Positions 7,373 to 53,488 of a stretch of 64,000 nucleotides of DNA are shown piece after piece. Where the stretch lies: contig JAXLTA010000009.1 in the NCBI GenBank assembly GCA_046330305.1, positions 7,349 to 71,348 on the forward strand. The letters are read 5' to 3'. The DNA is from Solirubrobacterales bacterium (GTDB taxonomy: Bacteria > Actinomycetota > Thermoleophilia > Solirubrobacterales > 70-9). A model generated the notes under the pieces. That model was not told the origin of the DNA. It searched no databases and was given only the letters and a program-made list of their open reading frames with translations. Every line of letters begins with the position of its first letter. The first letter of the stretch is position 1. The translations under genes were made by a program, and so were the position numbers.

Positions 7373-9396
7373 TGCGGCCCCGGCGGCGGGCAGGCGGAGG
7401 GCACCGCGGGGCAGCCCGAGGGCGGGTCGGGCGGCACGCTCGCCGTGGCGCCGACCTCCGAGGTCCCGCCTTCGGTGTTGGTCTGCGTGGCGGCGACCAG
7501 CGTGCCGCCGGCGACCGGGCTGAGGTAGGTCAGCTTCCAGGCGCCGCTGCCGTCGGCGGTCGTCTTGCCGAGATAGGCGCCCAGCTCACCCGCGGCCGAG
7601 CTCGACTTGGCGAAGACCCTCACCACCGCTTCCGGGGCCGCCGTGCCGCTGGCTTCGGCTTTGGTCGCGCTGGCCACGGTCGGCGGTTTGATGCCGCCGT
7701 TGGGACCGGCAGGTTCGGTGAGCGGTTCGGTGGCTTTGAGGCGGATGAACTTGCCGCCGTTGCCGGACCCCGCATTGCGGGCGACTTCGTTCTGCGAGCC
7801 TTCGACGTCGACGATCTCGATCGCGTTGCCCTGGCTGGTGTTGATCGTGTTGGCTTCGCCGCTGCCGTCGCCGCCGATCCGGTTTCCGGTGGCGGCCAGG
7901 CCCGAGAAGTCCTCGATCGCGATCCCGGTCTCGTTGCCGGTGAGGAAGTTGCCGGTGAGGACGTTGAGGTCGTTCTGGATGTAGACGCCGGTCTGGGCTT
8001 CGCCGATCGCGTTGTTCCTGATCGTGTTGCCGATTCCGGGCCCTTCGGTGTCGCCCCAGACGTGGATGCCGCGGTTGCCGCCGAAGATGTAGTTGCCGGC
8101 GATCGTCGCCCCGGTCGAGTGGCTTTCGACGCCGGTTCCTTCGGCCGAGACCCAGTTGGCTTCGACCACGGCCGCGTCCGCCGCCAGCGTGATCCCTTCC
8201 GAGAAGATCCCCAGCCCGATGTCGGGGGGGAACTGCGCGCCGCTGTTGTCGAGCTTGCGGCCGATCGAGTTGCCGAGGATCCTGAGCCGCTTCGCCGGCG
8301 AGGGGCCGGCACCGCTGACGACGGCGTAGTTGCCGCCGTTGATCAGGTTGCCGCCGCCGGCTTCCTTGCTGCCGACCGTGACGTCGCCGGCATTGCCGAC
8401 TTCGATGCCGGCGTCCGCCGCGCTGGCCGCGACCGCGCCGCTCGCGTCGCGGCCGATGTAGTTGCCGACGATCGTCGTCGGCCCGGTCGCCGGTTTCTCT
8501 TCGAAGGCGACCTGCCCCTTCAGGTCGATCGCCGCGACCGACGCCGCGTCGCTGAGGAAGACGTTGCAGCCGAGGTCGCAGGCGCTCGTCCCGGCGCCCT
8601 GGGCGCCGACCACGGCGCCGACGGTGTTGCCGGTCGCCTGGACGCCGCCCCCCGAGTCGGCGATCACCAGGTCGCGCAGATTCTTCACCGCGGTGGTCCC
8701 GTCCGGGGCGGCGCCGAAATAGTTGCCCGCGACGGTGTTTTCCTTCGAGCCGCGGAGCAGGAGGCCGGTCCGGAAGCCTGCGACGACGTTGCGCTGGACG
8801 GCCGCGGTGCCGCCGATCTGGCCCTTTTCGGTGTTTGGTTCGACCCTGATGCCGTAGCTGCCGGCGTTGGCTTCCTCGCCCGCCGCGGGCTGCCCGTCGA
8901 GCTTGATCCCGAGCCAGTCGCCGGCGGCGGTGAAGTTGGAGGCGTTGACCAGGATCGCGCCGAAGGCGTCGGAGATCGAGAGGTCGAGGATCGAGACGTC
9001 GTCCTCCTGCACGACGAAACCGGTGGCGAAGGTCGCTGGATTGATGCCGGCGCAGGGGCCGTTGATTCCGGCGGCGGTCAGGCAGGTGCCGGCGTCGATC
9101 GTGACCGGGGCTTCGATGTGCGGGAGTTCGGAGGTGAGCGCGATCGTGTCGGCCAGCCGGCCTTTGAAGACGCTGCCGTCGAAGAGGATGGTGTCGGCGA
9201 CCCCCGCCAGGTTGGTGACTTCGATCGCCGCCCGCAGGCTGCACTTGTTGGCGGCGGTCTTGCATTCGCCACCGGCGACTTCGTCGGCTTCGTCGGCTGT
9301 CGTGTTGACGATCTGCGCCGCCGAGGCGGCGGCCGGGACGGCGAGCAGCGCGGTGGCGAGCAGGGCCAGGACGAGGAGCCAGCGAGGCGTTTTCAT
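7102..9396 (-). CDS. Secreted CSLREA-motif / right-handed beta-helix repeat protein with a C-terminal Lys-rich Ig-like domain (long paralog)
   Basis: It has a signal peptide (MKTPRWLLVLALLATALLAVPAAASA) and an NKCSLRAAIEVTN motif. It carries many PbH1-type repeats (GNYIGRDASG, ILGNSIGRK, IAGNYIFGGNRGIHVW, IRNNAIGEAQTGVYI, LTGNFLTGNETGIAIE, ATGNRIGG). Its C-terminal 87 aa are nearly identical to those of the downstream paralog. Confidence 0.85.
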   Translation of the reverse strand: MKTPRWLLVLALLATALLAVPAAASAAQIVNTTADEADEVAGGECKTAANKCSLRAAIEVTNLAGVADTILFDGSVFKGRLADTIALTSELPHIEAPVTIDAGTCLTAAGINGPCAGINPATFATGFVVQEDDVSILDLSISDAFGAILVNASNFTAAGDWLGIKLDGQPAAGEEANAGSYGIRVEPNTEKGQIGGTAAVQRNVVAGFRTGLLLRGSKENTVAGNYFGAAPDGTTAVKNLRDLVIADSGGGVQATGNTVGAVVGAQGAGTSACDLGCNVFLSDAASVAAIDLKGQVAFEEKPATGPTTIVGNYIGRDASGAVAASAADAGIEVGNAGDVTVGSKEAGGGNLINGGNYAVVSGAGPSPAKRLRILGNSIGRKLDNSGAQFPPDIGLGIFSEGITLAADAAVVEANWVSAEGTGVESHSTGATIAGNYIFGGNRGIHVWGDTEGPGIGNTIRNNAIGEAQTGVYIQNDLNVLTGNFLTGNETGIAIEDFSGLAATGNRIGGDGSGEANTINTSQGNAIEIVDVEGSQNEVARNAGSGNGGKFIRLKATEPLTEPAGPNGGIKPPTVASATKAEASGTAAPEAVVRVFAKSSSAAGELGAYLGKTTADGSGAWKLTYLSPVAGGTLVAATQTNTEGGTSEVGATASVPPDPPSGCPAVPSACPPPGPQPTPDTQKPRVTIKKAPKAKSKSTTAKFVFSSNESGSSFQCRLDKKKFAKCRSPKTYRKLKPGRHVFKVRATDAAGNLGAAVTRRFTVLE

Positions 9397-9468
9397 CAGG
9401 AGACCCTATTCGGCAAGGCAAGGGCCACCAAATCGCGGCGTGCCGGGTTCAGCCCGAGGCTGGAGCGG

Positions 9469-10215
9469 CTATCCCGGGAAGCCCGTGGAGCGGACGTGCT
9501 CGACCTGCCCCCGGCCCTCGACGGCCGAGCGAGCGACGACGTCGTCCCACCCGTGCAGCAGCCGCTTCAGGCGGGCGACGCCCTCGGGCGGGTGGGCGGC
9601 GACTTCCCCGGCCAGCTCGAGCGCGGCGGCCTCGGTCGCGGCGGCGGGCGCGACCCGGTTGACGAGGCCGAGACGGAGCGCCTCGTCGGCGCCGACCGTG
9701 CGCGAGGAGAGCAGCAGGTACTTGGCGGTGGCGAGGCCGCAGAGGGTGACGAGGCGGGCCGCGCCGACCGGCATCGCGAGGGCGGCGCCGGGGAAGCGCA
9801 GGCGTAGGTTCGAGCCGCCGACCCGCATGTCGCAGGCGGTCGCGATCTCGGCGCCGCCGCCGACGACGTCGCCGTGGCAGACGGCGATCGTCGGCTTCGG
9901 GAAGGCGACGATCCCGTCGTAGAGGTCGGAGAACATCTGCATCCGCCGCACATGGCCCTCCGGGTCGAGCTGCTCGCGGACGTCGGCGCCGGCGGAGAGG
10001 CTGAGATGGTCGGCCGAGCTGAAGACGAGGACCCGCACCGCCTCGTCGGCCCGCGCCACCGCGAGGTGCTCGAGCAGCTCGCTCAGCATCTGGGTGTCCA
10101 TCGCGTTGCGCGCCTTCTCGCGTTCGAGGCGGATCAGCGCGACGCCGTCCTCCCGCACCCGGTAGCTGGTCCGCGACTCCTCGCCGTTGCCGTTTGAGGC
10201 GGCCTCAGTGCTCAT
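9469..10215 (-). CDS. Enoyl-CoA hydratase/isomerase (crotonase) family protein
   Basis: Crotonase-type segments are present: VALIRLEREKARNAMD, VLVFSSADHLSLSAGADV and VCHGDVVGGGAEIATACDMRV. Confidence 0.85.
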   Translation of the reverse strand: MSTEAASNGNGEESRTSYRVREDGVALIRLEREKARNAMDTQMLSELLEHLAVARADEAVRVLVFSSADHLSLSAGADVREQLDPEGHVRRMQMFSDLYDGIVAFPKPTIAVCHGDVVGGGAEIATACDMRVGGSNLRLRFPGAALAMPVGAARLVTLCGLATAKYLLLSSRTVGADEALRLGLVNRVAPAAATEAAALELAGEVAAHPPEGVARLKRLLHGWDDVVARSAVEGRGQVEHVRSTGFPG

Positions 10216-10807
10216 CGTCCGCGGAACCTAGCCGTTCGACCAGGCGCTCGGCCTCACGGGCGGCATCGGCGAGGAGCTCCTCGACCGCTGACCGCGGCTC
10301 GCGGAAGCGGCCGAGCACGTAGGCGGCGACGATCTCCGGGTCGGTCGAGTCGGGCCGCCCGACCCCGATCCGCAGCCGCCAGAACTCGGCGCTGCCGAAG
10401 CCCCGCTTGAGGCTCTTCAGCCCGTTGTGACCGGCGAGGCCGCCACCGAGGCGGCTGCGGATCTCGCCGAAGGGCAGGTCGATCTCGTCGTGGAGGACGA
10501 CGACGCGATCGAGCGGCACCTTGAGCGAGCCGCGGGCCGGCCCCGCCGAATCGCCGGAGGCGTTCATGTAGGTCTGTGGCAGCAGGACCGCGACCCGCGG
10601 TCCACCCGGCCCGCTGCGGCCCTCGTAGAGCAGGCCGCCGAACTTCTTGCGCGCCTTGCCGAGCTGCCAGCGGCGGGCCAGCTCCTCGGCGACGTCGAAG
10701 CCGACGTTGTGCCTGGTTCGCTCGTGCTCGGGCCCGGGGTTGCCGAGACCGACGATCAGGACGCGGTCCTCGCCGCCGCCCTCCTGGCGACGGCGAAACA
10801 GGGACAT
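10205..10807 (-). CDS. pth: Peptidyl-tRNA hydrolase
   Basis: Contains VLIVGLGNPGPEHERTRHNVGFDV and HDEIDLPFGEIRSRLGGGLAGHNGLKS. It sits in the conserved pth-ctc-prs-glmU neighbourhood. Confidence 0.93.
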   Translation of the reverse strand: MSLFRRRQEGGGEDRVLIVGLGNPGPEHERTRHNVGFDVAEELARRWQLGKARKKFGGLLYEGRSGPGGPRVAVLLPQTYMNASGDSAGPARGSLKVPLDRVVVLHDEIDLPFGEIRSRLGGGLAGHNGLKSLKRGFGSAEFWRLRIGVGRPDSTDPEIVAAYVLGRFREPRSAVEELLADAAREAERLVERLGSADDEH

Positions 10808-10840
10808 CGAGAGCGCTCCCGGGCGAGCGGAGCCGGGGGC

Positions 10841-11539
10841 CTAGCCCTCGGAGTCGCCGGAGTCGCCGCCCTCGCCCTCGCCCGCCTCGGCGCCCTCGGC
10901 CTCGGCCTCGCCGACCAGTTCGGCCTCCTCCTCGATCTCGGGCTCGGGAGCCTCTTCGACGCGGGGCGGCGAGAGGGTGACGATCGTGACCTCGTCGGGC
11001 TCCTCGGCGACGAAGGTGACGCCCTCGGGCGCCTCGACCGCGGAGAGCTGGAGGGTGTCGTTGATCTCCATCGCGGAGACGTCGACGACGATCCGGTCGG
11101 GGATCGCGGTCGGCAGCGCTTCGACCGTGATTTCGCGGGTGACGTGCTCGAGCACGCCGGAGGCGCGCACGCCGGGAGCGTCGTCGACGCCCTCGAGCTC
11201 GAGCACGACGTCCGCCTGGATCGCCTCGTCGAGTTTCACCTGCTGCAGGTCGAGGTGCTGGACGGTGCCCCGCACGGGGTGCAGCTGCTGTTCCTTGATC
11301 ACGACCGGGACCGCTTTGCTGCCCTCGATTTCGAGGTCGAAGAGAGCGGCGCCCTCCTGCAGGATGTTGCGGATCTCGCGTTCGGCGACCTGGAAGGGCC
11401 TGGCCTCCTCGCCGCCGGAGTAGACGACGCCGGGGACGACGCCCTCGCGGCGCAGGCGGCGCGAGCTGCGCGAGCCGAAATCGGCGCGCGGAGCGACCTT
11501 CAGTGTCGAGCGGGAACCTGCCATCGGACGGGAGAGCAT
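10841..11539 (-). CDS. rplY: 50S ribosomal protein L25 / general stress protein Ctc
   Basis: Contains RADFGSRSSRRLRREGVVPGVVYSGGEEA...VVIKEQQLHPVRGTVQHLDLQQV and an acidic C-terminal tail typical of Ctc-type L25. Confidence 0.9.
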   Translation of the reverse strand: MLSRPMAGSRSTLKVAPRADFGSRSSRRLRREGVVPGVVYSGGEEARPFQVAEREIRNILQEGAALFDLEIEGSKAVPVVIKEQQLHPVRGTVQHLDLQQVKLDEAIQADVVLELEGVDDAPGVRASGVLEHVTREITVEALPTAIPDRIVVDVSAMEINDTLQLSAVEAPEGVTFVAEEPDEVTIVTLSPPRVEEAPEPEIEEEAELVGEAEAEGAEAGEGEGGDSGDSEG

Positions 11540-18061: not shown

Positions 18062-18134
18062 TCCGGGGTGGTGTAATCGGCCAGCACGCCAGGTTTTGGT
18101 CCTGGAAGAGAGGGTTCGAGTCCTTCCCCCGGAA
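18062..18134 (+). tRNA. tRNA-Gln (anticodon UUG)
   Basis: Folded by hand into a 73-nt cloverleaf. The acceptor is TCCGGGG/CCCCGGA, the D stem GTGT/GCAC, and the anticodon stem CCAGG/CCTGG with loop TT-TTG-GT. The T arm is GAGGG-TTCGAGT-CCTTC and the discriminator is A. No CCA is encoded. It follows glmU, as in many Actinomycetota. Confidence 0.9.
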
Positions 18135-18149: not shown

Positions 18150-19391
18150 CTACTCCTCGCCGCCGCGCGTCACCTTGCCGCCCTTGGCGCCCGGCTCGAG
18201 CGCCGGGCCCCTGGGCGAGGCGATGCCGAGGACGCGCATCGCCTTGAGGCCGAGGCCGAGCTTCTCGCGGCCTTCGGTCGCCGAGACGTCGTGGCCGCAG
18301 AGCTCGCGCACGCGCTCGAGCCGGTAGCGGATCGTGTGGCGGTGGGTGAAGAGCTGTTTGGCGGTGGCGGCGACGTTGCCGTCGTTGTCGAGATAGGCCT
18401 CGACGGTGGCGACGAGCTCGGTCTCGTACTGCTCGTCGTAGTCGGAGAGCGGTTTGACCGTCTCGGCGTAGAAGCGTTCGAGCTCGCCCGGGTCCTCGCT
18501 CATCGCCGGCAGCAGCAGGCGGTAGGCGCCGGTGTCCTCGAAGGCGAGCACCGGGTGGCCCTCGGCCTCGCCGACGTTGACCGCGAGCCGCGCCTCCGAG
18601 CCGGCACGGTAGAGGTCGACGGGGTCGGCGCAGCGGCGGCTGCGGCCGGTCGTCAGGTGAAAGCCGGGCAGGCCGTCCTCGAGCTCGCGGGAGAGGCCGG
18701 CGGCGGCGCGGGCGAGGCGCTCGTCGTCCTCGGCGGGAACGATCACGGCCAGGTTGGCGGCGCCGTCCTCCCCCGGCTCGAGCGTCGCCAGCGAGCCCGG
18801 CGCCAGCGAGCGCAGGGCGCGCATCGCCAGCGTCATCACGCGCTTGCGCCACTCACCGCTCTGGGCGGCGCGCGGGGCTGCCCGCAGCACCAGCACCCCG
18901 GCGCCGCGGTCGAGGTCGGCGCCGAGCTCGGCGCCGCGGGCGACGATGTCGCCGCGGTCGGTGACGTCGCGGTCGAGCACCGCCGCGACGAAGGCGCTGG
19001 CGACCTCCTCGCTGGCCCACTCGGGCGAGCGCGAGCGCTCCAGCTCCAGTGCCAGCAGCGTCGCCACCATCCGGGCGAGCACCGGATCGGGCGGGGCGCC
19101 GGCCCGGTAGCGCAGCTCGCCCACCGCGGCATCGGCGACCCGCAGCTCCACCCTGGTCACGCCCTCGCCGGCGGAGAGCAGCCGCTGCTCCTGATCGGGG
19201 GAGGCTCCGGCGACGGCGAGAACCGCGCTGGAGCGGTCGATCAGGGCGACGCTGGCGTCCAGCACGCGCGCCGCGGCGCGCGCCACCGCGGGCAGTCCGG
19301 CCCCCGACTCGACCGCTTCGGAAAGCGCCTCGAGCAGGCCGGGATCAGCCGCCCGTGCAGCGCTCTCGCTCTCTTTCGAGGTTGCCGGCAT
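18150..19391 (-). CDS. PucR/CdaR-family transcriptional regulator
   Basis: The C-terminal HTH segment reads LVATVEAYLDNDGNVAATAKQLFTHRHTIRYRLERVRELCGHDV. Confidence 0.8.
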   Translation of the reverse strand: MPATSKESESAARAADPGLLEALSEAVESGAGLPAVARAAARVLDASVALIDRSSAVLAVAGASPDQEQRLLSAGEGVTRVELRVADAAVGELRYRAGAPPDPVLARMVATLLALELERSRSPEWASEEVASAFVAAVLDRDVTDRGDIVARGAELGADLDRGAGVLVLRAAPRAAQSGEWRKRVMTLAMRALRSLAPGSLATLEPGEDGAANLAVIVPAEDDERLARAAAGLSRELEDGLPGFHLTTGRSRRCADPVDLYRAGSEARLAVNVGEAEGHPVLAFEDTGAYRLLLPAMSEDPGELERFYAETVKPLSDYDEQYETELVATVEAYLDNDGNVAATAKQLFTHRHTIRYRLERVRELCGHDVSATEGREKLGLGLKAMRVLGIASPRGPALEPGAKGGKVTRGGEE

Positions 19392-19432
19392 CGCTCCATT
19401 ATCCCCCCGCTGCCCCGCGACCGGGCAGGTGG

Positions 19433-19696
19433 CTACTTGCCGTGGATGAAGTTGAGGATGTCGTTGTAGTAGTAGACGACCGCCAGCCCGATCACGACCC
19501 CGCCGACCAGCAGCGCGGCGAGGACGAAGAGGGCGAGGAAGCCGGCGGCGGTCTTTTCCCAGACCCGACCGTGGGCGCTGAGCGCCGGGCTGAGGATGAA
19601 GACGACGAAGGTGACAAGGCAGATCAGCCCGGCGGCGCCCCAGAGCAGGTACTGGTGCCCGATCCTGGCCAGCGCGTATGGGATGGCGGCGCTCAT
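19433..19696 (-). CDS. Small (87 aa) two-span membrane protein
   Basis: The in-frame ATG is the complement of 19694..19696, inside the junk ORF 19433..21904. The product MSAAIPYALARIGHQYLLWGAAGLICLVTFVVFIL...VVYYYNDILNFIHGK has two hydrophobic spans. Its ATG overlaps the TGA of the upstream gene (ATGA). Confidence 0.5.
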   Translation of the reverse strand: MSAAIPYALARIGHQYLLWGAAGLICLVTFVVFILSPALSAHGRVWEKTAAGFLALFVLAALLVGGVVIGLAVVYYYNDILNFIHGK

Positions 19697-21189
19697 TGGC
19701 GTGGATTGTGGCGCACTCCGGAGATGACCAACCCGACCAGGGCGCAGAAGGAGAAGGCGGCCGCCCCCAGCGCCCAGCCGGCGCTGACGTCGCTGAGGTA
19801 GTGGACGTTGAGGTAGACGCGCGAGAGGCCCACGAGCACGGTCAGGGCGACACCGGTGACGACGACCGCGGTCGCCCGCGCCATCCCGGGCCGCAGCCGC
19901 AGCACGATCGTCACCGCCAGCCAGACGTAGATCACCGAATGCGCGGCGTGGCCGCTGGGGAACGAGGAGCCGGTCGTGTCGACCAGCCGGTCGGGCGGCC
20001 GCGGCCGGTCGACGAGGGCCTTGATCTCGGGGAAGGCGAGCTGGATGATCGTCATCCCGGCGAGCAGGACCCAGAACTCGGTCCAGCGCCGCCGCAGCGC
20101 CAGCAGCACCGCGCAGAGCGCGGCGAGCGCCCAGGTGAAGACGCCCGAGCCGAGCACGGTGACGACCTTGGCCAGCGCCAGCAGGAAGCCGCCGCGCAGC
20201 TGGTCGACCACTTCGAAGGCGGTTTCGTCGCCGGGCGTCGCCCCGGGGTCGCGGCCGACGACGACGGCGTAGGCGATCAGCACGAAGAGCGCCACCGCCA
20301 GCGTCGCCACCAGCGAGGTGAATTCGAGGCCGAAGGTGCCGCCCGGCGTCACCCGGTTCCAGAGGAAGCGCAGCTGCGGCTCGTAGCGGCGGCCGAGCAC
20401 GACCAGCCAGCGCGCCGCAGCGTGCGCCTCCATCCAGCGCACCGCCGCGCGGCGGTTCTCGGCGACGCGGAAGTGGCGGTACAGGAAGACGGTTCCGGCG
20501 ACGATCGCGATCAGCAGGCCGAGCAGGAAGGCCCCTTTGGCGGCGTACTTGCCGGCGGTCTCGATGCTGCGCGAGAAGAGGTAGCCGATCAGGATGTGGG
20601 CACTCGCCCAGAGGCCGGTGCCGAGGATGCTGTAGGGGACGAAGGCGCGGTACCCCATGCCCGAGCTGCCGGCGATGAACGGGGCGAAGGCGCGGACCAG
20701 GCTGATGAAGCGCCCGATGAAGATCGTCTTGCCGCCGTGGCGGGAGAAGTAGTCCTCGACCTTCTCGAAGCGCTCCTGCCCGATCCCGAAGCGCGGGCCG
20801 TGGCGGAGGACGAACTCGCGGCCGAGGCGGCGGCCGAGGAAGAAGCTGGTCGTGTCGCCGAGCCAGGCGGCAAACCAGGCGACGGCGATCAGCAGGTAGA
20901 TGTTGATCACGCCCTGGCCGGCGACGGCTCCGCCGAGCAGCATCACGGTCTCGCCGGGGACGACGAGGCCGACGAAGGCACCGGTCTCGGCGAAGGCGAA
21001 GACCCCGACCAGCAGGTAGGTCCAGCCGCCGAGCGCGTTGGAGACGTCTTCGAGCAGCGACTGCAGGTTGACGCTGCCGAGCTCGCGGCTGAGGAAGAAA
21101 TAGCCGACCGCGACGGCGATCGCCGCCGCCCCGATCAGCAGCTGTTTGCGCCGTCCCTTGCCGCCCCCTCCCTCGCCCGGCAGCTTCAC
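19693..21189 (-). CDS. DedA-family membrane domain fused to a PAP2 (type 2 phosphatidic acid / undecaprenyl-PP phosphatase-like) domain
   Basis: The DedA region reads FAETGAFVGLVVPGETVMLLGG...GRFISLVRAFAPFIAGSSGM. The PAP2 motifs are SFPSGHAAHS and SRVYLNVHYLSDVSAGWALG. Confidence 0.85.
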   Translation of the reverse strand: MKLPGEGGGGKGRRKQLLIGAAAIAVAVGYFFLSRELGSVNLQSLLEDVSNALGGWTYLLVGVFAFAETGAFVGLVVPGETVMLLGGAVAGQGVINIYLLIAVAWFAAWLGDTTSFFLGRRLGREFVLRHGPRFGIGQERFEKVEDYFSRHGGKTIFIGRFISLVRAFAPFIAGSSGMGYRAFVPYSILGTGLWASAHILIGYLFSRSIETAGKYAAKGAFLLGLLIAIVAGTVFLYRHFRVAENRRAAVRWMEAHAAARWLVVLGRRYEPQLRFLWNRVTPGGTFGLEFTSLVATLAVALFVLIAYAVVVGRDPGATPGDETAFEVVDQLRGGFLLALAKVVTVLGSGVFTWALAALCAVLLALRRRWTEFWVLLAGMTIIQLAFPEIKALVDRPRPPDRLVDTTGSSFPSGHAAHSVIYVWLAVTIVLRLRPGMARATAVVVTGVALTVLVGLSRVYLNVHYLSDVSAGWALGAAAFSFCALVGLVISGVRHNPRQ

Positions 21190-23596: not shown

Positions 23597-23602
23597 CGCC
23601 AG

Positions 23603-23659
23603 AGCATAGGAACGACGAGACCCCGCGCGCGGGCAGCGCGGGGTCTCGTCGTTCCTATG
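23603..23659 (-). terminator. 25-bp perfect inverted repeat (7-nt loop) between metG and tatD; putative I-shaped terminator or regulatory hairpin
   Basis: GCATAGGAACGACGAGACCCCGCGC (23603..23627) is the exact reverse complement of 23635..23659. On the minus strand the hairpin ends 6 nt before the tatD ATG and begins 60 nt after the metG stop. Confidence 0.4.
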
Positions 23660-23719
23660 CGCCGGTTATCGCCAGCTATCCGCTTGCGCTGAATCGCACA
23701 AGCGTCCAGATCGGAGTCT

Positions 23720-37320: not shown

Positions 37321-38607
37321 ATGAGCGTCGCTTCTCAGAGCTTGATGGACAACGTCACCTACGAGGACCTCTACCGCCGCTGGGAGCACGGCAACTGGAG
37401 CGCCTACGACCTCGACTTCAGCGGCGACCGGCCCGGCTGGGAGGGGCTGAGCGAGATCCAGCGCCGCTCGGCGATGTGGATCTACTCGATGTTCTACTAC
37501 GGCGAGGACCGGGTGGCCGACACGCTCGCGCCCTACGTGACCGCCGCCCCGACCGAGGAGCAGTCCTACTTCCTCGCCACCCAGCAGGTCGACGAGGTGC
37601 GCCACTCGATCTTCTTCCACCGCTTCTTCAAGGAGGTGATCGGCGTCGGCGGCGAGACCGTGGAGCAGACGCTGGCCTCCACCCTGCCGCAGCTGAACTG
37701 GGGCTACCGGGGGATCTTCGACCGCCTCGACCGGATGGCGGAGGAACTGCGCAGGGATCGCTCGCTGCCGAAGTACGCGCAGGCGATCACCCTCTACCAC
37801 CTGATCGTCGAGGGCAGCCTCGCCCAGCCGGGCCAGCACTTCATCGAGGACTTCTTCGCCTCGGCGGAGACGATGCCGGCCTTCAGCGCCGGCATGGCGA
37901 ACGTCTCGCGCGACGAGCAGCGCCACATCGGGTTCGGCGTCAAGGTCCTCTCCGAGCTGCTCGCCGAGGGCACGCCCGGGTGGGAGGAGAACCGGGCGGC
38001 GGTGGTCGAGCTGCTGCGGGAAACGCTGCCCTACGGGCCGGCAGTCTTCTCGCCGCCCGGGCTCGACCGCGAGTACACCGAGTGCTACGGCTTCCGCCTC
38101 GAGGACATCTTCGCCTTCGGCCTCAAGCTGATTCGCCAGCGCTGGCGGACGATCGGCTTCCCGACCGAGGAGATGCCGCCCGGGGTCTTCCCCTTCGACC
38201 CCGAGGAGAGCGCCGAGGCGGTCGCCGAGCGCCAGGTGAAGCTGATGATGGGCGGCATCCTCGGCGCGCCCGACGGTCCGCCACCGCAGTCGACCCCGGA
38301 GCTGCAACGCCTCTACTTCGACCTGATCGCCCGCGTCGCCGACCCGGCAGCCGCCAACGGCGAGCAGCTCGTCTACCAGTGGCGCTTCACCGATGCCGAC
38401 CCCTGGCACCTGATCCTCGACAACGGCTCGACCCGTGCCGAGCCGGGCCTGGCCCCCAACCCCACGGTGACCGTGGAGACCAGCTGGGCTGACTGGATCG
38501 CCTCGGGCAAACCCGATGCCAACCAGCTGAAGATGCTGCTCCAACGCCGGATCCGGCCGCGCGGCAAGGTTCGCGAGCTGGCGCGGATGCGGCGGGTGTT
38601 CGGGTAG
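37321..38607 (+). CDS. Ferritin-like di-metal carboxylate protein of the R2 (ribonucleotide reductase small subunit)-like / R2lox-like type, fused to a C-terminal SCP2-like domain
   Basis: Two ExxH motifs (QVDEVRHSIFF and SRDEQRHIGFG) plus the carboxylates GEDRV and IVEGSL. Phe sits at the position 4 residues after the first ExxH His. The C-terminal ~100 aa (WRFTDADPWHLILDNG...ETSWADWIASGKPDANQLKMLLQRRIRPRGKV) look like SCP2. Confidence 0.85.
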   Translation: MSVASQSLMDNVTYEDLYRRWEHGNWSAYDLDFSGDRPGWEGLSEIQRRSAMWIYSMFYYGEDRVADTLAPYVTAAPTEEQSYFLATQQVDEVRHSIFFHRFFKEVIGVGGETVEQTLASTLPQLNWGYRGIFDRLDRMAEELRRDRSLPKYAQAITLYHLIVEGSLAQPGQHFIEDFFASAETMPAFSAGMANVSRDEQRHIGFGVKVLSELLAEGTPGWEENRAAVVELLRETLPYGPAVFSPPGLDREYTECYGFRLEDIFAFGLKLIRQRWRTIGFPTEEMPPGVFPFDPEESAEAVAERQVKLMMGGILGAPDGPPPQSTPELQRLYFDLIARVADPAAANGEQLVYQWRFTDADPWHLILDNGSTRAEPGLAPNPTVTVETSWADWIASGKPDANQLKMLLQRRIRPRGKVRELARMRRVFG

Positions 38608-38651
38608 TCGCGGCGGGCGAGGGACGGGCCAAGGGACGAAGGCTTCGCGAG

Positions 38652-38774
38652 GGGGAGGGGTGGGGTGTCCCTCTTCACTCGGCCGTGTCGTCGGCGAGAA
38701 GCTTTCAAGCTCCTCGCCCGCAGCCCAGCCCTCCTCAGCCGCAAAACGATCAGAGGAACACCCCACCCCTCCCC
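38652..38774. repeat. Element copy A, left-arm rod hairpin
   Basis: 38652..38674 (GGGGAGGGGTGGGGTGTCCCTCT) pairs with 38752..38774 at 22 of 23 positions. The apical stem is GGCGAGAAGCTT-TC-AAGCTCCTCGCC. Confidence 0.75.
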
Positions 38775-38933
38775 TGGCAACAGGAACCACCGCCCGCGCC
38801 CGCTCCCAAAGCTTCAAAGGGACGAAGGCGCCCCGCCGAAAACGCAGTTCCGCTCGCTATGCGAGTGAAAGTGCGTTCTCAACGGGCGGTGATGGAAGCG
38901 CGCTCTCAAGCACCATTGAAAGCGCCAAGGCAT

Positions 38934-38978
38934 CCCGTGGTTCCTTGTGGACGCTCTGGGTCCGCAAGGAACCACGGG
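38934..38978. repeat. Element copy A, core hairpin H2
   Basis: CCCGTGGTTCCTTG (38934..38947) pairs perfectly with CAAGGAACCACGGG (38965..38978), with a 17-nt loop. Confidence 0.8.
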
Positions 38979-39004
38979 ATGGGAAAACGCCGGCTTTGCG
39001 GAGG

Positions 39005-39047
39005 GCGTGGTTCCTAACGGTCGCCAGGCGACCGTTAGGAACCACGC
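39005..39047. repeat. Element copy A, core hairpin H3 (43-bp perfect palindrome)
   Basis: GCGTGGTTCCTAACGGTCGCC-A-GGCGACCGTTAGGAACCACGC has 21-bp perfect arms. Confidence 0.85.
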
Positions 39048-39210
39048 GATTGGAGGCCGGTCCGGCTCTTCGAGAACGCGGGGCTGGGGTGCTCGTCCCT
39101 TGCCGCTCTTCGAGAGACGCTGGGCCTGGTCCCTTTCAAGCTCTGGGCAAGGGGGCGGGGCCTCGTCTTTGTCCGGGAGCTCCCGGGGTTGGGGGGCCGT
39201 GGAGCCTTCA

Positions 39211-39329
39211 GGGAGGGTCGGGTGACCCTCTGAACGTTTTGCGGCTGAGGAGGGCTGGGCTGCGGGCGAGAGCTCTCCCAACTCCCCGACGACGACACGG
39301 CCGAGTGAAGAGGGTCACCCGACCCTCCC
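39211..39329. repeat. Element copy A, right-arm rod hairpin
   Basis: 39211..39231 (GGGAGGGTCGGGTGACCCTCT) pairs with 39309..39329 at 21 of 21 positions. Confidence 0.8.
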
Positions 39330-39389
39330 GACCAGCCTCTCGTCCCCCACCCCCCTGCGAGCCCCCGTCCCTTACAGGGGGCCCGGTGC

Positions 39390-40805
39390 TCAGGCGATGG
39401 GCGGCCGAGCCGCCGCCCAAGGCCGCTCGGTCTCGAGCTGGCCGGCCAGCGAGAAGAGGGTCGCCTCGTCGCCGGGGCGGGCGACGACCTGGACGGCGAG
39501 CGGGAGGCCGTCGGCGGCGAAGCCGGTGGGCACCGACATCGCCGGGTTGCCGAGATGGTTCCAGGGGATGCAGTAGGGATAGAAGCGGCTCATCCCGAGC
39601 ACGGTGTAGAGGGCGCCGCGACCCTCCCACTTGCGCACCGGCAGCGCGGTGCCGCCCATCACGGGCATCACCAGGACGTCGAACTCGTCGAAGATCGCGT
39701 TGATCCGGAGGGCGTCCTCCTCACGGCCCGCCAGTGCCCGCTGGTAGACCGCCTCCGGGAGCAGGGAGCCGAGGCGGCCGAAGCCGCGCGTGCGCCGTTC
39801 CAGTCGGTCGGGGTGAGGCACCTCAGCGACGGAGTCGGCGACACCGCGCAGGAAGCGGGGGGTGATGTTGTTGGCGACGTTCCCCCAGTCGGGGTCGCGT
39901 TGCTGCACCTGGTGGCCGAGCGCGGTCAGCATCCGCGCCGCCTCCTCGACCGTGGCCGCGACCTCGTCGGAGAGGACCGGCGGCGCCAGCGCCCGCGGCG
40001 GCTTCGTCGACCAGGCGACGCGCAGCTTGCCGGGCGGGGATTGCGCCGACTCGACGAACGGCCGCTGCGGGGGCGGCGGCGCGCCGGGCTCCTTCGACCC
40101 ACCCGAGACGACGTCGAGCCAGAGGGCGCTGTCGACGACGTTACGACTGAGACAGCCGAGCGCGGCGAGACCGTGCCAGCCATCCAGTTCCGGCGCCAGC
40201 GAGACGCGGCCGCGCTGGGGCTTCAGCCCGAACAGGCCGCAGGAGGCCGCCGGCAGCCGGATCGAGCCGCCGCCGTCGCCGGCCAGGGCGACCGGGACGA
40301 GGCCGGCGGCGACCGCCGCGCCCGAGCCGCCGCTGGATCCGGCCGGGGTGCGCTGCGGGTTCCACGGATTGCGGGTGACGCCGTAGGTCGCCGACTCGGT
40401 GAAGCCGCAGATCGCCAGCTCGGGCAGGAGCGTGATGCCGACGATGATCGCGCCCGCCTCGCGCAGCCGGCGGACGACCTCGGAGTCGGCCTTGGCCGGG
40501 CGGTCGAAGGCATCGGTCCCCCAGGTGCGAACCTCGCCGGCGATCTCGACTTCGTCCTTGATCGCGATCGGCACCCCGAGCAGCGGCCGCGTCTCCCCCG
40601 CCCGCAGCCGCGCCTCGGCCTGCTCGGCTTCCAGCATCGCCTTCTCGGCGAAGACCTTGCGGAACGAGTTCAGCTGCGGGTCCAGGCGGGCGATTCGGTC
40701 GAGGCAGATGCCGACCAGCTCAGCCGGAGAGACCTCGTGCTCGCGGACCATCTCCGCCATCCGCGCGGCGCCGGCAAAGGCGATCTCCTCGGCTCCCTTG
40801 GCCAC
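39390..40805 (-). CDS. Amidase (amidase-signature family)
   Basis: Contains GGSSGGSGAAVAAGLVPVALAGDGGGSIRLPAASCGLFGLKP (AS Gly/Ser-rich signature) and the KD..E region LLGVPIAIKDE. Confidence 0.9.
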   Translation of the reverse strand: MAKGAEEIAFAGAARMAEMVREHEVSPAELVGICLDRIARLDPQLNSFRKVFAEKAMLEAEQAEARLRAGETRPLLGVPIAIKDEVEIAGEVRTWGTDAFDRPAKADSEVVRRLREAGAIIVGITLLPELAICGFTESATYGVTRNPWNPQRTPAGSSGGSGAAVAAGLVPVALAGDGGGSIRLPAASCGLFGLKPQRGRVSLAPELDGWHGLAALGCLSRNVVDSALWLDVVSGGSKEPGAPPPPQRPFVESAQSPPGKLRVAWSTKPPRALAPPVLSDEVAATVEEAARMLTALGHQVQQRDPDWGNVANNITPRFLRGVADSVAEVPHPDRLERRTRGFGRLGSLLPEAVYQRALAGREEDALRINAIFDEFDVLVMPVMGGTALPVRKWEGRGALYTVLGMSRFYPYCIPWNHLGNPAMSVPTGFAADGLPLAVQVVARPGDEATLFSLAGQLETERPWAAARPPIA

Positions 40806-49208: not shown

Positions 49209-49850
49209 ATGGAGGCTCATACCACCCCGAGCCGGCGCAGCGAAAAGCTCGCCGCCTCTCCCCCGCTTTTCAAAAGCGAGTTCCTCAACTTCTTCTCCCG
49301 CGTCCACCCGGCGATCCCGGCGCTGATCTTCGTCCCGGTCGTCGTCGTCATGGAGTGGCTTGCCTTCGACAAGGGCTGGGACCTCTGGCAGGTCGTGGTC
49401 CTGACCCTGGCCGGCATCGCCTTCTGGACGCTGACCGAGTACTGGCTGCACCGGCTGGTCTTCCACTGGGAGCCGGACAACGCCTTCGGTCGGCGGATGC
49501 ACTTCATCATCCACGGCATCCATCACGACCACCCCAACGACAAGCTCCGCCTGGTGATGCCCCCTTCGGTCTCGATTCCCCTGGCCGCCCTCTTCTTCCT
49601 CGTCTTCTGGCTGATCCTCGGCAACGCCGCCTTCCCCGTCTTCGCCGGCTTCATCGGCGGCTACCTCGCCTACGACTACACGCACTACTACGTCCACCAC
49701 TTCGTGCCGAAGACCCGCTTCGGCAAACGCCTGCGCGAACACCACATGCGCCACCACTTCCAGGACCACCGCTACGGCTACGGCGTCTCCTCGCCCGTCT
49801 GGGACGTCGCCTTCAAGACCCTGCCGAGGCAGCGGAAGCAGCGGGACTAG
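49209..49850 (+). CDS. Fatty acid hydroxylase / sterol desaturase superfamily membrane protein
   Basis: Histidine boxes are present: WLHRLVFHW, IHGIHHDHPND, HYYVHH and HHMRHHF. The ATG at 49209 is in frame within ORF 49125..49850. Confidence 0.85.
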   Translation: MEAHTTPSRRSEKLAASPPLFKSEFLNFFSRVHPAIPALIFVPVVVVMEWLAFDKGWDLWQVVVLTLAGIAFWTLTEYWLHRLVFHWEPDNAFGRRMHFIIHGIHHDHPNDKLRLVMPPSVSIPLAALFFLVFWLILGNAAFPVFAGFIGGYLAYDYTHYYVHHFVPKTRFGKRLREHHMRHHFQDHRYGYGVSSPVWDVAFKTLPRQRKQRD

Positions 49851-49908
49851 GCGGTCGGGGCGCTCGCGGGCAGTGCCCCCGACGGCCAAGGGACGGAGGT
49901 TCGCGAGA

Positions 49909-50030
49909 GGGAGGGGTGGGGTGTCCCTCTTCACTCGGCCGTGTCGTCGGGGGGAAGCTTTCAAGCTTCTCGCCCGCAGCCCAGCCCTCCTCAGCCGCAA
50001 AACGTTCAGAGGAACACCCCACCCCTCCCC
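49909..50030. repeat. Element copy B, left-arm rod hairpin
   Basis: GGGAGGGGTGGGGTGTCCCTCT (49909..49930) pairs with AGAGGAACACCCCACCCCTCCC (50008..50029). The apical stem is GAAGCTT-TC-AAGCTTC. Confidence 0.75.
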
Positions 50031-50259
50031 TGGCAACAAGAACCGCCGCCCGCGCCCGCGCCCAAAGCTTCAAAGGGACGAAGGCGCCCCGCCGAAAACG
50101 CAGTTCCGCTCGCTATGCGAGTGAAAGTGCGTTCTCAACGGGCGGTGATGGAAGCGCGTTCTCAAGCACCGTTGAAAGCGCCAAGACATCCCGTGGTTCC
50201 TTGTGGACGCTCTGGGTCCGCAAGGAACCACGGGATGGGAAAACGCCGGCCTTGCGGAG

Positions 50260-50302
50260 GCGTGGTTCCTTACGGTCGCCTGGCGACCGTTAGGAACCAC
50301 GC
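50260..50302. repeat. Element copy B, core hairpin H3
   Basis: GCGTGGTTCCTTACGGTCGCC-T-GGCGACCGTTAGGAACCACGC has one T-T mismatch (50271/50291) relative to the perfect copy A. Confidence 0.8.
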
Positions 50303-51799
50303 GATTGGAGGCCTTGGTCCCTTGGGGGCTCTTCGAGAGACGGTGGCCCTGGTCCCTTTCAAGCTCTGGGCAAGGGGGCGGGGCCTCGTCTTGTCCGGGA
50401 GCTCCCGGGGTTGGGGGGCCGGTGGACTCTTCAGGGAGGGTCGGGTGACCCTCTGAACGTTTTGCGGCTGAGGAGGGCTGGGCTTCGGGCGACAGCTTTC
50501 CCCACTCCCCGACGACGACACGGCCGAGTGAAGAGGGTCACCCGACCCTCCCGACCAGCCCCTCGTCCCCCGCCCCTGCGAGCCCCCGTCCCTTACAGCG
50601 GCCCCCCTCAACGCCAGCTCCAACTCGAACCGTCGGTCCGGATCGACGAGCGAATCGCCGAGCAGCTCGCGAAGCCGGGCGATCCGGTAGCGGGCTGTCT
50701 GCGGATGGATCTGCAGCTCGGTGGCGATCGCCACCGCGTTGCCGCCGTGGCGGACGTGGGCGAGGGCGGTCTCGCGCATCCGCGCTCTGGCCTTTGGCGT
50801 GAGGTCAGCAAGCGGGGCGAGGCGGATGGCGGCGATGCGGGCGGTGAGGGCGGCGCCCTGGGCCAGCAGGAGTGCGGCGAGGTGGTCGTCGGCGCGCAGG
50901 AGGCCGGCCGGGGGGACGGCGCCGCTCTCGGACGCGCGCAACAGGGCGCCGGCGAGGGCCCATGAGTCGGCCAGCCCCGAAGGCGCGGCGGCCGGGCCGA
51001 GAGCCAGGCGCGAGGAGACGGCGGCGCGCTCCAGGACGGTGGCGCGGCCGGGACCGTCGGGGTCGGGGATGACCAGGCAGCCGACCCCCTCCCGCGCCAC
51101 CGCCAGGGTCTCCGGCGGCAGGCGGCGCGCCAGCGCCGCCAGGTCGGCCTCGGCGCAGGCGGCAGCGGCGGCGAGCCGGGGCAGCCGCCAGGCGGCGGCT
51201 CGAGCGGCGGCGGTCAGCTCGTCCGGCGCGGCCGGGGGCTCGGCGAGGAGCAGTCCGGCGAGCCGGCGACGGCGCTCGCGGCGCTCGTCCTCGACCTCGG
51301 CCTGGGCCGCGGCGTACCCCTCGGCCGAGTCGGCGGACAGCTCGTCGATGTAGGCGAATATCGCCTCGGCCAGCAGGATCAGCGGCTGGGGGCCGATGCC
51401 GGCCTCACCGCAAGCCGCGGCGATCCGGCGCCAGGCCACGCGGGCGCCGGAGCGATACGCGGCGAGCAGCGAGTCGAGCGCTCTGCCCTCGCGCTGCTCG
51501 CCACGGCCGAGCTCCACATAGACCTCGCGCCCCGTCCCCCGGCCGGCGTCCGGATCGCGGATCAGGGCGACGAACTGCCGCAGCGCCTCGCCTACCCCCG
51601 TGCGGAGGTTGCGGCCGAAGTTGCCCTCCAGCGGCCGGGCGTACTCGGGAACCTGGAGGGAGATCGTCGCCAGGATCTCGCCGGTGATGGCGGGCAGCTC
51701 CGGCTCGATCACGTCGGCGACGGCGGCGGGCAGGTCGCGCCACGGCTCGGCTGCCACTCCGGCCCCGCCGCGGGTCGCGGTATCGGACTTTTTTGGCAT
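50270..51799 (-). CDS. PucR-family transcriptional regulator. The ORF as it stands reads about 111 codons into repeat copy B.
   Basis: The C-terminal HTH reads GNAVAIATELQIHPQTARYRIARLRELLGDSL...RRFELELALR. After that point (about 50604) the frame continues through the repeat (GAAVRDGGSQGRG...PIAWFLTVARRP) to a TAA at 50270..50272. Confidence 0.75.
   Translation of the reverse strand: MPKKSDTATRGGAGVAAEPWRDLPAAVADVIEPELPAITGEILATISLQVPEYARPLEGNFGRNLRTGVGEALRQFVALIRDPDAGRGTGREVYVELGRGEQREGRALDSLLAAYRSGARVAWRRIAAACGEAGIGPQPLILLAEAIFAYIDELSADSAEGYAAAQAEVEDERRERRRRLAGLLLAEPPAAPDELTAAARAAAWRLPRLAAAAACAEADLAALARRLPPETLAVAREGVGCLVIPDPDGPGRATVLERAAVSSRLALGPAAAPSGLADSWALAGALLRASESGAVPPAGLLRADDHLAALLLAQGAALTARIAAIRLAPLADLTPKARARMRETALAHVRHGGNAVAIATELQIHPQTARYRIARLRELLGDSLVDPDRRFELELALRGAAVRDGGSQGRGTRGWSGGSGDPLHSAVSSSGSGESCRPKPSPPQPQNVQRVTRPSLKSPPAPQPRELPDKTRPRPLAQSLKGTRATVSRRAPKGPRPPIAWFLTVARRP
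50434..50552. repeat. Element copy B, right-arm rod hairpin
   Basis: 50434..50454 pairs perfectly with 50532..50552. The stem sequence is the same as in copy A. Confidence 0.8.
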
Positions 51800-53418: not shown

Positions 53419-53488
53419 ACGGGCCCCGGTGAGGGTCCTCCAGACACTCAGCCCGAAGGGCGTCTGGAGGACCCTCGCCGGGGCCCGT
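53419..53488. terminator. 27-bp-stem hairpin between convergent genes (putative bidirectional I-shaped terminator)
   Basis: ACGGGCCCCGGTGAGGGTCCTCCAGAC (53419..53445) pairs with 53462..53488 at 26 Watson-Crick positions plus one G-U. The loop is 16 nt and there is no U-tract. Confidence 0.45.

Follow-up and report, generated by a model that had tools for sequence, protein, structure and literature searches.

A hitherto undescribed family of large, non-coding, hairpin-rich repeats in soil Solirubrobacterales

Two copies of a repeat of ~0.75 kb, here called A and B, lie in a 64,000-nucleotide stretch of DNA (the window) from a Solirubrobacterales bacterium (assembly GCA_046330305.1, contig JAXLTA010000009.1, positions 7,349 to 71,348), and they belong to a hitherto undescribed family of large, non-coding, hairpin-rich repeats in soil members of this order. 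In related genomes, members of the family insert at TA dinucleotides, and they look like oversized relatives of the known miniature transposons, not like a new kind of gene. We favour, with reasonable though not high confidence, the view that the element is a non-coding, non-autonomous, TA-inserting mobile repeat resembling transposable elements of the miniature inverted-repeat type (MITEs) and bacterial interspersed mosaic elements (BIMEs), unusually large and modular, which is mobilised in trans by a putative cut-and-paste transposase and tolerated at gene ends, where it probably acts as a hairpin terminator or 3′-end stabiliser. Solirubrobacterales, which are placed in the class Thermoleophilia of the Actinomycetota, are abundant soil bacteria, almost all of them uncultured, and to our knowledge neither their mobile elements nor their RNA biology has been explored.

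The two copies, 721–759 nt long and ~11 kb apart, are the two elements within the 64-kb window (Table 1). A first-pass annotation, made from the sequence alone, had described them as two co-oriented copies that differ by substitutions, small indels and one indel of ~36 nt, and alignment bears this out: in the same orientation they are 96.1% identical over 432 nt and 93.5% identical over 292 nt (93–95% over the full length), with a few 1-nt indels and one segment (~39059–39094) that only copy A has. The distances it gave to the flanking stop codons, 18 nt (R2-like gene) and 5 nt (amidase gene) for copy A and 33 nt (hydroxylase gene) for copy B, are likewise right, the limits of copy A being accurate to about ±10 nt. 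The end of copy A on the amidase side (GGGCC) is orthologous to an end in L107, one of the loci fetched from other genomes, which are cited here by such numbers. With only two copies 11 kb apart, in a window taken from a metagenome-assembled genome (MAG), one might suspect an assembly artefact or the local duplication of a segment, without any family. The sequences flanking A and B, however, are unrelated to each other, so that no duplication including the flanks is seen, and the copies differ by 5% in addition to the 36-nt indel. Moreover, arm cores of the element occur in four other genomes or contigs, and both loci are also filled by family members in relatives whose genomes were assembled independently; the copies in other genomes and the occupied orthologous loci refute this explanation, to which we give almost no credence.

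The first-pass annotation had also treated the ~0.75 kb repeat as a single element; the copies are real, but the unit proves to be a mosaic of smaller modules, which are recombined differently in other genomes. Each copy comprises two inverted arms of ~200 nt, AAGGGACG repeats and two central 70-nt hairpin modules. Every arm carries an inner and an outer AAGGGACG-type repeat, with a long GC-rich stem around a conserved interior of ~75 nt between the outer and the inner motif, and the centre consists, across the family, of one to four tandem 70-nt hairpin modules. Terminal inverted repeats are present, the outer ends reading GGGCC..AAGGGACG and CGTCCCTT..GGCCC. On the left arm of copy A, the outer AAGGGACGAAGGC repeat (38631–38643) is 100% identical to 38817–38829, at a spacing of 186 nt, and the motif is mirrored on the right arm at 39129 and 39367 as well as at 39095, where another GTCCCTT is found. 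The second central module lies 70 nt from the first and is 73% identical to it, and its type recurs ~3.7 times at a 70-nt period in L102 and once in L103. Tandem Repeats Finder reported nothing in copy A, the 36-nt segment included; the central modules are too diverged for it.

The nested palindrome that had been proposed is borne out at each level. The arms of copy A (38653–38773 and 39211–39329) are complementary at 86% over 122 nt, and each arm is itself a hairpin, 38652–38674 pairing with 38752–38774 on the left and 39185–39231 with 39309–39355 on the right, so that the arm stems of the window element measure 23–47 bp. There are two central hairpins in addition, and the whole element folds at −516 kcal/mol as compared to −358 ± 7.5 kcal/mol for shuffled sequences (z = −21), and the opposite strand gives z = −23.

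The lack of a coding signal, the GC-poorer centre and the absence of a transposase from the window, all noted from the sequence at the outset, hold as well. The G+C content at third codon positions is 0.62–0.72 in the six frames of the element, as compared to 0.83–0.98 for the window genes, the frame is broken by indels between A and B, and the open reading frames (ORFs) inside the element gave no Pfam match. The G+C content of the centre is 0.59–0.65 versus 0.714 for the window. A Pfam scan of 34 window ORFs, with a few stretches lying outside the scan, found no transposase domain, and neither a Y1 transposase of the RAYT type (REP-associated tyrosine transposase, REP standing for repetitive extragenic palindrome) nor a DDE transposase of the IS630/Tc1-mariner type was found among these ORFs. 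Rfam 15 assigned no family to the window or the related loci at gathering score, one tRNA elsewhere in the window apart, and a threshold of E ≤ 10 brought up nothing but generic microRNA-hairpin models. In the promoter and terminator scan no promoter-like site appeared and the two terminator-like sites equal the chance level; no canonical terminator tail was found on the element. No match to the family was obtained among plasmids (PLSDB, distant mode) or, by pattern scan, among viral contigs (IMG/VR), and a full-text literature search for the invariant motifs described below and for repeats in Thermoleophilia returned nothing. Four further candidates were rejected by eye: a small ORF in the arm interior (no start codon, no conservation of frame), a hammerhead ribozyme (CUGAGGA is present, but GAAA is missing and the helix arrangement is wrong), an integron attC site (it is the inside of the stem that is conserved and not the base, and cassette arrays are lacking), and IS200/IS605 ends or an omega RNA (TA on both sides, no TnpB).

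Outside the window the family was traced by its arm. A scan of one genome per species with an 18-mer taken from the interior of the arm gave ~30 sites in the 3.9 Mb MAG CAVUUQ01 ('uncultured Actinomycetes'; below, the MAG) and three in a Solirubrobacterales MAG; the part that these have in common with the window is the arm only, at 78–82% identity, and not the centre. A pattern scan of metagenomes gave 59 hits, only two of which are real (contigs L064 and L083). A covariance model (R1), the check that the first-pass annotation had proposed, has now been run and picks 39 arm cores at ≥100 bits in five genomes or contigs: four in the window, 29 in CAVUUQ01 (in at least 21 loci), four in DASXFL01 and one each in L064 and L083. 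It also picks diverged orthologous arms in close relatives, at 57–67 bits. The units in the MAG, whose terminal inverted repeats have GGGATCAGGGTTGG... termini, are the ends of composites of 0.39–0.62 kb built on the plan of the window element: a tip, an arm hairpin, the AGCT-N4-AGGGACG motif and one GTGGTT...AACCAC central hairpin are followed by the mirrored motif, a second arm (with the same core or of another type) and a tip. The AGCT-N4-AGGGACG motif is that of the inner repeat in copy A, and it is duplicated in L102; furthermore, the hairpin at 38838..38880 of copy A is similar to the interior of the second arm type (hairpin X of the MAG, L064 and L111). The idea that a 'Z' arm of the relatives is an inverted arm interior is unsupported, as the covariance model does not detect Z. 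Family members in relatives measure 355–615 nt.

Insertion at TA dinucleotides is shown, for the related genomes, by the element ends, which were delimited by pairwise boundary mapping. Composites with the same internal junction occur at ≥3 unrelated loci each, with 94–97% identity, and about 20 of the 24 ends delimited in the MAG adjoin TA, for which chance gives ~2% per end. Most family members start with G. Among the ORFs that converge on the tips in other genomes, 20 of 23 end in TAG, as compared to a background use of ~31–48% (P = 4e-8 to 1e-4 for the excess at tips), and in 11 cases the stop consists of the flanking TA and the first G of the element. The neighbouring gene survives because TA+G restores a TAG stop, and the orientation rule, by which a tip stands next to the stop, follows from the inversion of the arms. 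TAG is also an unusually common stop for 71% G+C, being used by 11 of 32 long window ORFs and 39 of 82 ORFs in tiles of the MAG, and part of the TAG excess is due to family members that regenerate it. The first-pass annotation had placed both copies between convergent gene ends; the position stands, but it is now explained as a result of insertion at TA dinucleotides, many of which belong to stop codons, since in genomes of 70% G+C TA is mostly found at TAG and TAA stops and in short spacers.

Filled and empty sites can be compared around the amidase gene. In L111, where the amidase is 79% identical, the amidase/R2-like spacer is only 24 nt long (AGCCTCCTAGCTAGGAGCATCTCC), while it contains copy A (759 nt) in the window and family members of 295–458 nt in L106, L107 and L108. 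The reverse holds between the MMPL gene and the start of the amidase, which are separated by 18–21 nt in the window and L106 but by a family member of ~355 nt in L111. The empty MMPL/amidase sites read TGAGCACG-TA-GGATTGGC and the filled site of L111 reads TGAGCC-TG-(GGCGCTCC...CCTGACCCCA)-TA-GGATTGGC, its right junction falling exactly at the TA of GTAGGATTGG. The empty amidase/R2-like spacer of L111 (3917–3940) further contains a perfect 14-nt palindrome, CTCCTAGCTAGGAG, whose TAGCTA core could be read as TA+G+C+TA, that is, as the excision footprint of an element ending in G...C, which is pure speculation.

Both window loci are occupied in relatives with 79–88% protein identity, by strongly diverged versions. 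At the locus of copy B (PucR/hydroxylase), L102 (85%) has ~3.7 tandem central hairpins, diverged arms and insertions of IS3-type and IS110-type elements, and in L103 and L104 (79%) the spacer measures 392 nt and contains a single central hairpin and an arm of which half is lost. At the locus of copy A, L106, L107 and L108 (86–88%) carry other arm variants. The segment GCGAGGGACGGG (38614–38625), just outside the left limit of copy A, is also present in L106 and therefore belongs to the same resident element, as an older part of it. From one genome to another, orthologous elements have only ~30-nt pieces in common, as compared to 93–95% identity over the full length of A and B, and the same contrast is seen in the glmM-glmS spacer of the MAG and its relatives. 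This spacer contains a 560-nt family member in CAVUUQ01 (L033, 2085–2700) and a decayed 334-nt version that retains this member's central hairpin, GTGGTTGTC...GACAACCAC, in L109 and L110 (3821–4154; 88–89% identity), and the family is therefore also found in front of glmS. The end of a LuxR-type gene (...LKILV-TAG), which adjoins a family member in two genomes (L015, ~3092; L064, ~5850), is another case of orthologous occupancy; the tip in L064 shows a tandem TA-GGCGG(G/T)G...TT duplication.

Because both loci were already occupied in relatives and A and B are nevertheless ~95% identical, the two copies have probably been homogenised or replaced, by gene conversion or replacement of older residents, and not simply transposed. 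A family that decays in some genomes while it is active or being homogenised elsewhere would also fit; one new transposition into a site that was empty agrees less well with the pattern. Members in relatives have repeatedly been interrupted by insertion sequences (IS): L102 in 7894–10885 (IS3-type and IS110-type) and L083 in ~530–1000 (an IS with an rve domain), while IS481-like elements are inserted at the AGCTGAC|TAG|GGACG motif in L009 (~1000–2120) and L030 (~7650). Family elements appear to offer IS a safe haven or a preferred target.

On the interpretation that we favour, a trans-acting cut-and-paste transposase of a TA-duplicating kind, similar to IS630/Tc1-mariner, would move the element, and the AAGGGACG repeats would be the binding sites of this putative enzyme. 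Insertion at TA, with the first G restoring a TAG stop, would make it tolerable at gene ends, where resident elements may persist for long and, in some lineages, decay or gather IS insertions. Gene conversion or replacement would keep the copies within a genome alike; such homogenising would explain the 95% identity of A and B despite occupancy of both loci in the common ancestor, as well as the lack of clean TA flanks on the window copies. As RNA, the arms and central hairpins would probably serve as bidirectional terminators or 3′-end stabilisers between convergent genes.

Several observations weigh against this interpretation. The left copy of the duplication in L111 is TG and not TA, and would have to be degenerate. 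The window copies are without clean TA flanks, their left ends reading CA|AGGGAC and their outermost ends GGGCC/GGCCC, and the similarity between A and B extends a few nucleotides beyond any candidate TA. An autonomous parent, with inverted termini 1–3 kb apart, was found neither in the window nor in the fetched loci; the only long case bounded by terminal inverted repeats (TIRs), L009, is not a parent but an IS481-like element that has entered a member of the family. That the same loci have long been occupied could also reflect a host function. Finally, the near-invariant interior of the arm, its covarying stem and its G.U excess exceed the needs of a decaying MITE, and this pattern of conservation suggests that the arm core functions as folded RNA or single-stranded DNA.

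When the arms are aligned, the stem is wholly changed between subfamilies yet still paired, and three interior motifs, GAACGTTTTGCGGCTGAGGAG, CGGGCGA(C/G)AG and CGACGACAGGCCGAGTGA, are near-invariant across them. In the R1 alignment standard pairs fill 98.8% of the pair cells, as compared to 34–52% with a slid partner, and compensatory changes occur in 20 of 27 pairs, although these figures overstate independence, since the copies share ancestry and their alignment was fitted to the model. Covariation is found in 16 of 19 pairs of the arm-core stem, and an exchange of C-G for U-A is seen in a second, inner helix (CGGCU/GGCCG). G.U pairs are nearly confined to one strand (34 cells versus at most five non-pairs, A.C), which runs from the inside of the element to the tip on both arms.

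From the sequence the element had been thought to be either a mobile element or a structured RNA family. Its mobility is now supported by dispersed copies, TA flanks and filled and empty sites, and the RNA alternative is left with a distinctly smaller share of our confidence. It holds that selection acts on the arm core, or on the element as a whole, as a folded RNA and that its spread is secondary, the RNA being a module of the 3′ untranslated region, a terminator-insulator or one that serves the element. In its favour are the covarying stem and inner helix, the motifs that stay almost invariant while the stems change fully, and the one-sided G.U pairs, together with a location directly after stop codons and the long occupation of loci. 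Template switching, however, can give covariation in DNA palindromes without any RNA function, and the favoured strand ends 3′ at the tip on both arms, which fits a role at DNA ends equally well. Moreover, the fold is symmetric on both strands, the subfamilies do not agree on a secondary structure of the interior, a match to an Rfam family is lacking even at E ≤ 10, and the element has no promoter-like site or canonical terminator tail. Arms that are decayed, half-lost or IS-interrupted in close relatives also run contrary to strong host selection. A selected RNA gene or module is rather improbable in our view, though it deserves to be kept in mind.

A more novel reading starts from the arm core. 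The 19–23 bp covarying stem, the three near-invariant motifs and the strand-specific tolerance of G.U would then mark it as a functional folded nucleic acid and not as transposon debris, either a single-stranded DNA structure on the transferred strand that is recognised by a novel TA-inserting transposition system or a new transposon-borne RNA module, a reading that we regard as conceivable but unlikely. In its RNA version, the module might terminate or insulate convergent transcription, or control the 3′ ends of neighbouring genes, across Solirubrobacterales.

The modular structure invites a further comparison, with host-maintained mosaics of the REP/BIME type, which, like enterobacterial BIMEs, would be spread and maintained by a RAYT or by recombination. 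Palindromic modules alternate in orientation, the central hairpins number one, two or about four, the fold is strand-biased, and the elements are extragenic and downstream of genes, as are REPs (PMC3733652, PMC2817692). Units of 50–120 nt instead of 20–40 nt do not fit such an origin, however, nor does the lack of a conserved GTAG/CGTC tag, GTAG being found in one stem subfamily only. The TA flanks and the filled and empty site at TA are not a RAYT signature, and the scan of 34 window ORFs found no Y1 transposase. We consider this explanation to be less probable still than the RNA alternative.

Table 1. Position of the two window copies, their modules and the adjoining gene ends (window coordinates).
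Feature	Position	Strand	Details
Copy A, whole element	38626..39384	none	between R2-like gene stop and amidase stop
R2-like gene stop flanking copy A	38605-38607		TAG
Amidase gene stop flanking copy A	39390-39392	-	TGA
Copy A, left arm core	38652..38774	-	23-bp stem, conserved interior ~77 nt; R1 113.3 bits; inverted repeat; fold z = -6.9
Copy A, right arm core	39209..39331	+	R1 115.7 bits; inverted repeat; stem reaches 39185-39355
Copy A, outer AAGGGACGAAGGC repeat of left arm	38631..38643	+	direct repeat, motif scan
Copy A, inner repeat of left arm	38810..38829	+	AGCTTCAAAGGGACGAAGGC
Copy A, inner repeat of right arm	39129..39142	-	GTCCCTTTCAAGCT on plus strand; motif scan
Copy A, outer repeat of right arm	39363..39374	-	CCCCGTCCCT, then TA 39373-39374
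Copy A, hairpin	38838..38880	none	GAAAACGCAG...CGCTATGCG...GCGTTCTC; fold
Copy A, central hairpin module 1	38931..38981		22-bp stem CGTGGTTCCTT...AAGGAACCACG; z = -11
Copy A, central hairpin module 2	39005..39047		21-bp perfect stem
Copy A, A-only segment of ~36 nt	39059..39094		by eye a duplicated GCTCTTCGAGA...GTCCCTT module
Copy B, whole element	49884..50604	none	between hydroxylase stop and 3′ end of PucR-type regulator gene
Fatty-acid hydroxylase stop beside copy B	49848-49850		TAG
Copy B, left arm core	49908..50030	-	R1 117.2 bits
Copy B, right arm core	50432..50554	+	R1 118.5 bits
Copy B, central hairpin module 1	50187..50237		inverted repeat
Copy B, central hairpin module 2	50260..50302		
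PucR-type regulator ORF as assembled	50270..51799	-	509 codons, last ~110 from element B

The right side of copy B overlaps the last codons of a PucR-type regulator gene. As assembled, this ORF has no in-frame stop at the gene end and reads 110 codons into the element, and in NCBI the regulator is annotated with 495 aa, as compared to 387–405 aa for its homologues. Deletion of one C from the run of six at 50602–50607 gives a protein of 401 aa that ends LALRGPL-TAA, and the orthologue in L102 also has 401 aa and ends LALRGTA-TAG. The C run is thus likely to be the point of a frameshift, which may be either real or a homopolymer error of the assembly. A second gene for a regulator of the PucR family, with HTH_30 and GGDEF_2 domains, is found at 18150–19841, next to a tRNA gene (18062–18134, 59 bits). 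Two other strong intergenic hairpins of the window, at 23599–23665 (30-nt arms, 93%), between metG-like and tatD-like genes, and at 53419–53488 (27-nt arms, 96%), are unrelated in sequence to the element and may be terminators or another type of repeat.

The family indicates that 'miniature' transposons of bacteria can reach three to five times the textbook size, that they can be assembled from exchangeable hairpin modules, and that such elements can sit right on stop codons and regenerate them. It is also of practical importance as a source of annotation errors, here a regulator annotated ~100 residues too long, as a hot spot for IS insertion and, likely, as a cause of assembly breaks. Should the arm core prove to work in folded form, be it as RNA or single-stranded DNA, a new structured motif would be added, and it might reveal a new mode of transposon end recognition.

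Among known systems, the closest likeness is to the bacterial MITEs with TA termini, namely Correia/NEMIS of Neisseria, ERIC/IRU of enterobacteria and RUP of S. pneumoniae, which is linked to IS630-Spn1 (PMC2229807). These are non-coding and intergenic, have TIRs and a TA terminus or target, are often co-transcribed and often have no known transposase, and their transcripts are predicted to form long 5′-end/3′-end stem-loops (PMC2229807). The window family is likewise non-coding and intergenic, with TIRs, TA at the ends of its members in related genomes and long predicted stem-loops. The known families, however, measure ~100–200 bp with TIRs of 4–26 bp, as compared to 0.35–0.76 kb with arms of ~200 nt in the window family, and the window copies (721–759 nt) exceed the size of less than ~300 bp that is usual for a MITE. 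Unlike Correia, ERIC and RUP, the window family also has an internal tandem array of hairpins and a covarying, sequence-conserved arm core; sequence similarity to them was neither detected nor expected.

BIMEs are mosaics of REP units that are located downstream of genes or between convergent genes, with likely roles in termination and mRNA stabilisation (PMC2817692, PMC3733652). The window family resembles them in its alternating palindromic modules, whose number varies between genomes, and in forming extragenic downstream arrays. REP units, however, are 20–40 nt long, carry a GTAG/CGTC tag and are linked to RAYTs, whereas the modules of the window family are 50–120 nt long, have no conserved tag and form elements whose ends, in related genomes, are TA-flanked.

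A third likeness is to Tc1/mariner elements of the inverted repeat/direct repeat (IR/DR) kind, such as Sleeping Beauty, which have a TA target and inverted repeats of ~200–250 bp with a direct repeat at their outer and inner ends. The host of the window family is bacterial, and the related bacterial family of Tc1/mariner is IS630. The window element has a corresponding arrangement, with AAGGGACGAAGGC at 38631 and, 186 nt further on, at 38817, and with its mirror image on the right arm. Unlike the IR/DR elements, it has no transposase gene, binding of the repeats by a transposase is putative, and a long hairpin with a conserved interior lies between the repeats. In its covariation and invariant loops the arm core is statistically like the structured RNA motifs of Rfam, yet it matches none in Rfam 15.

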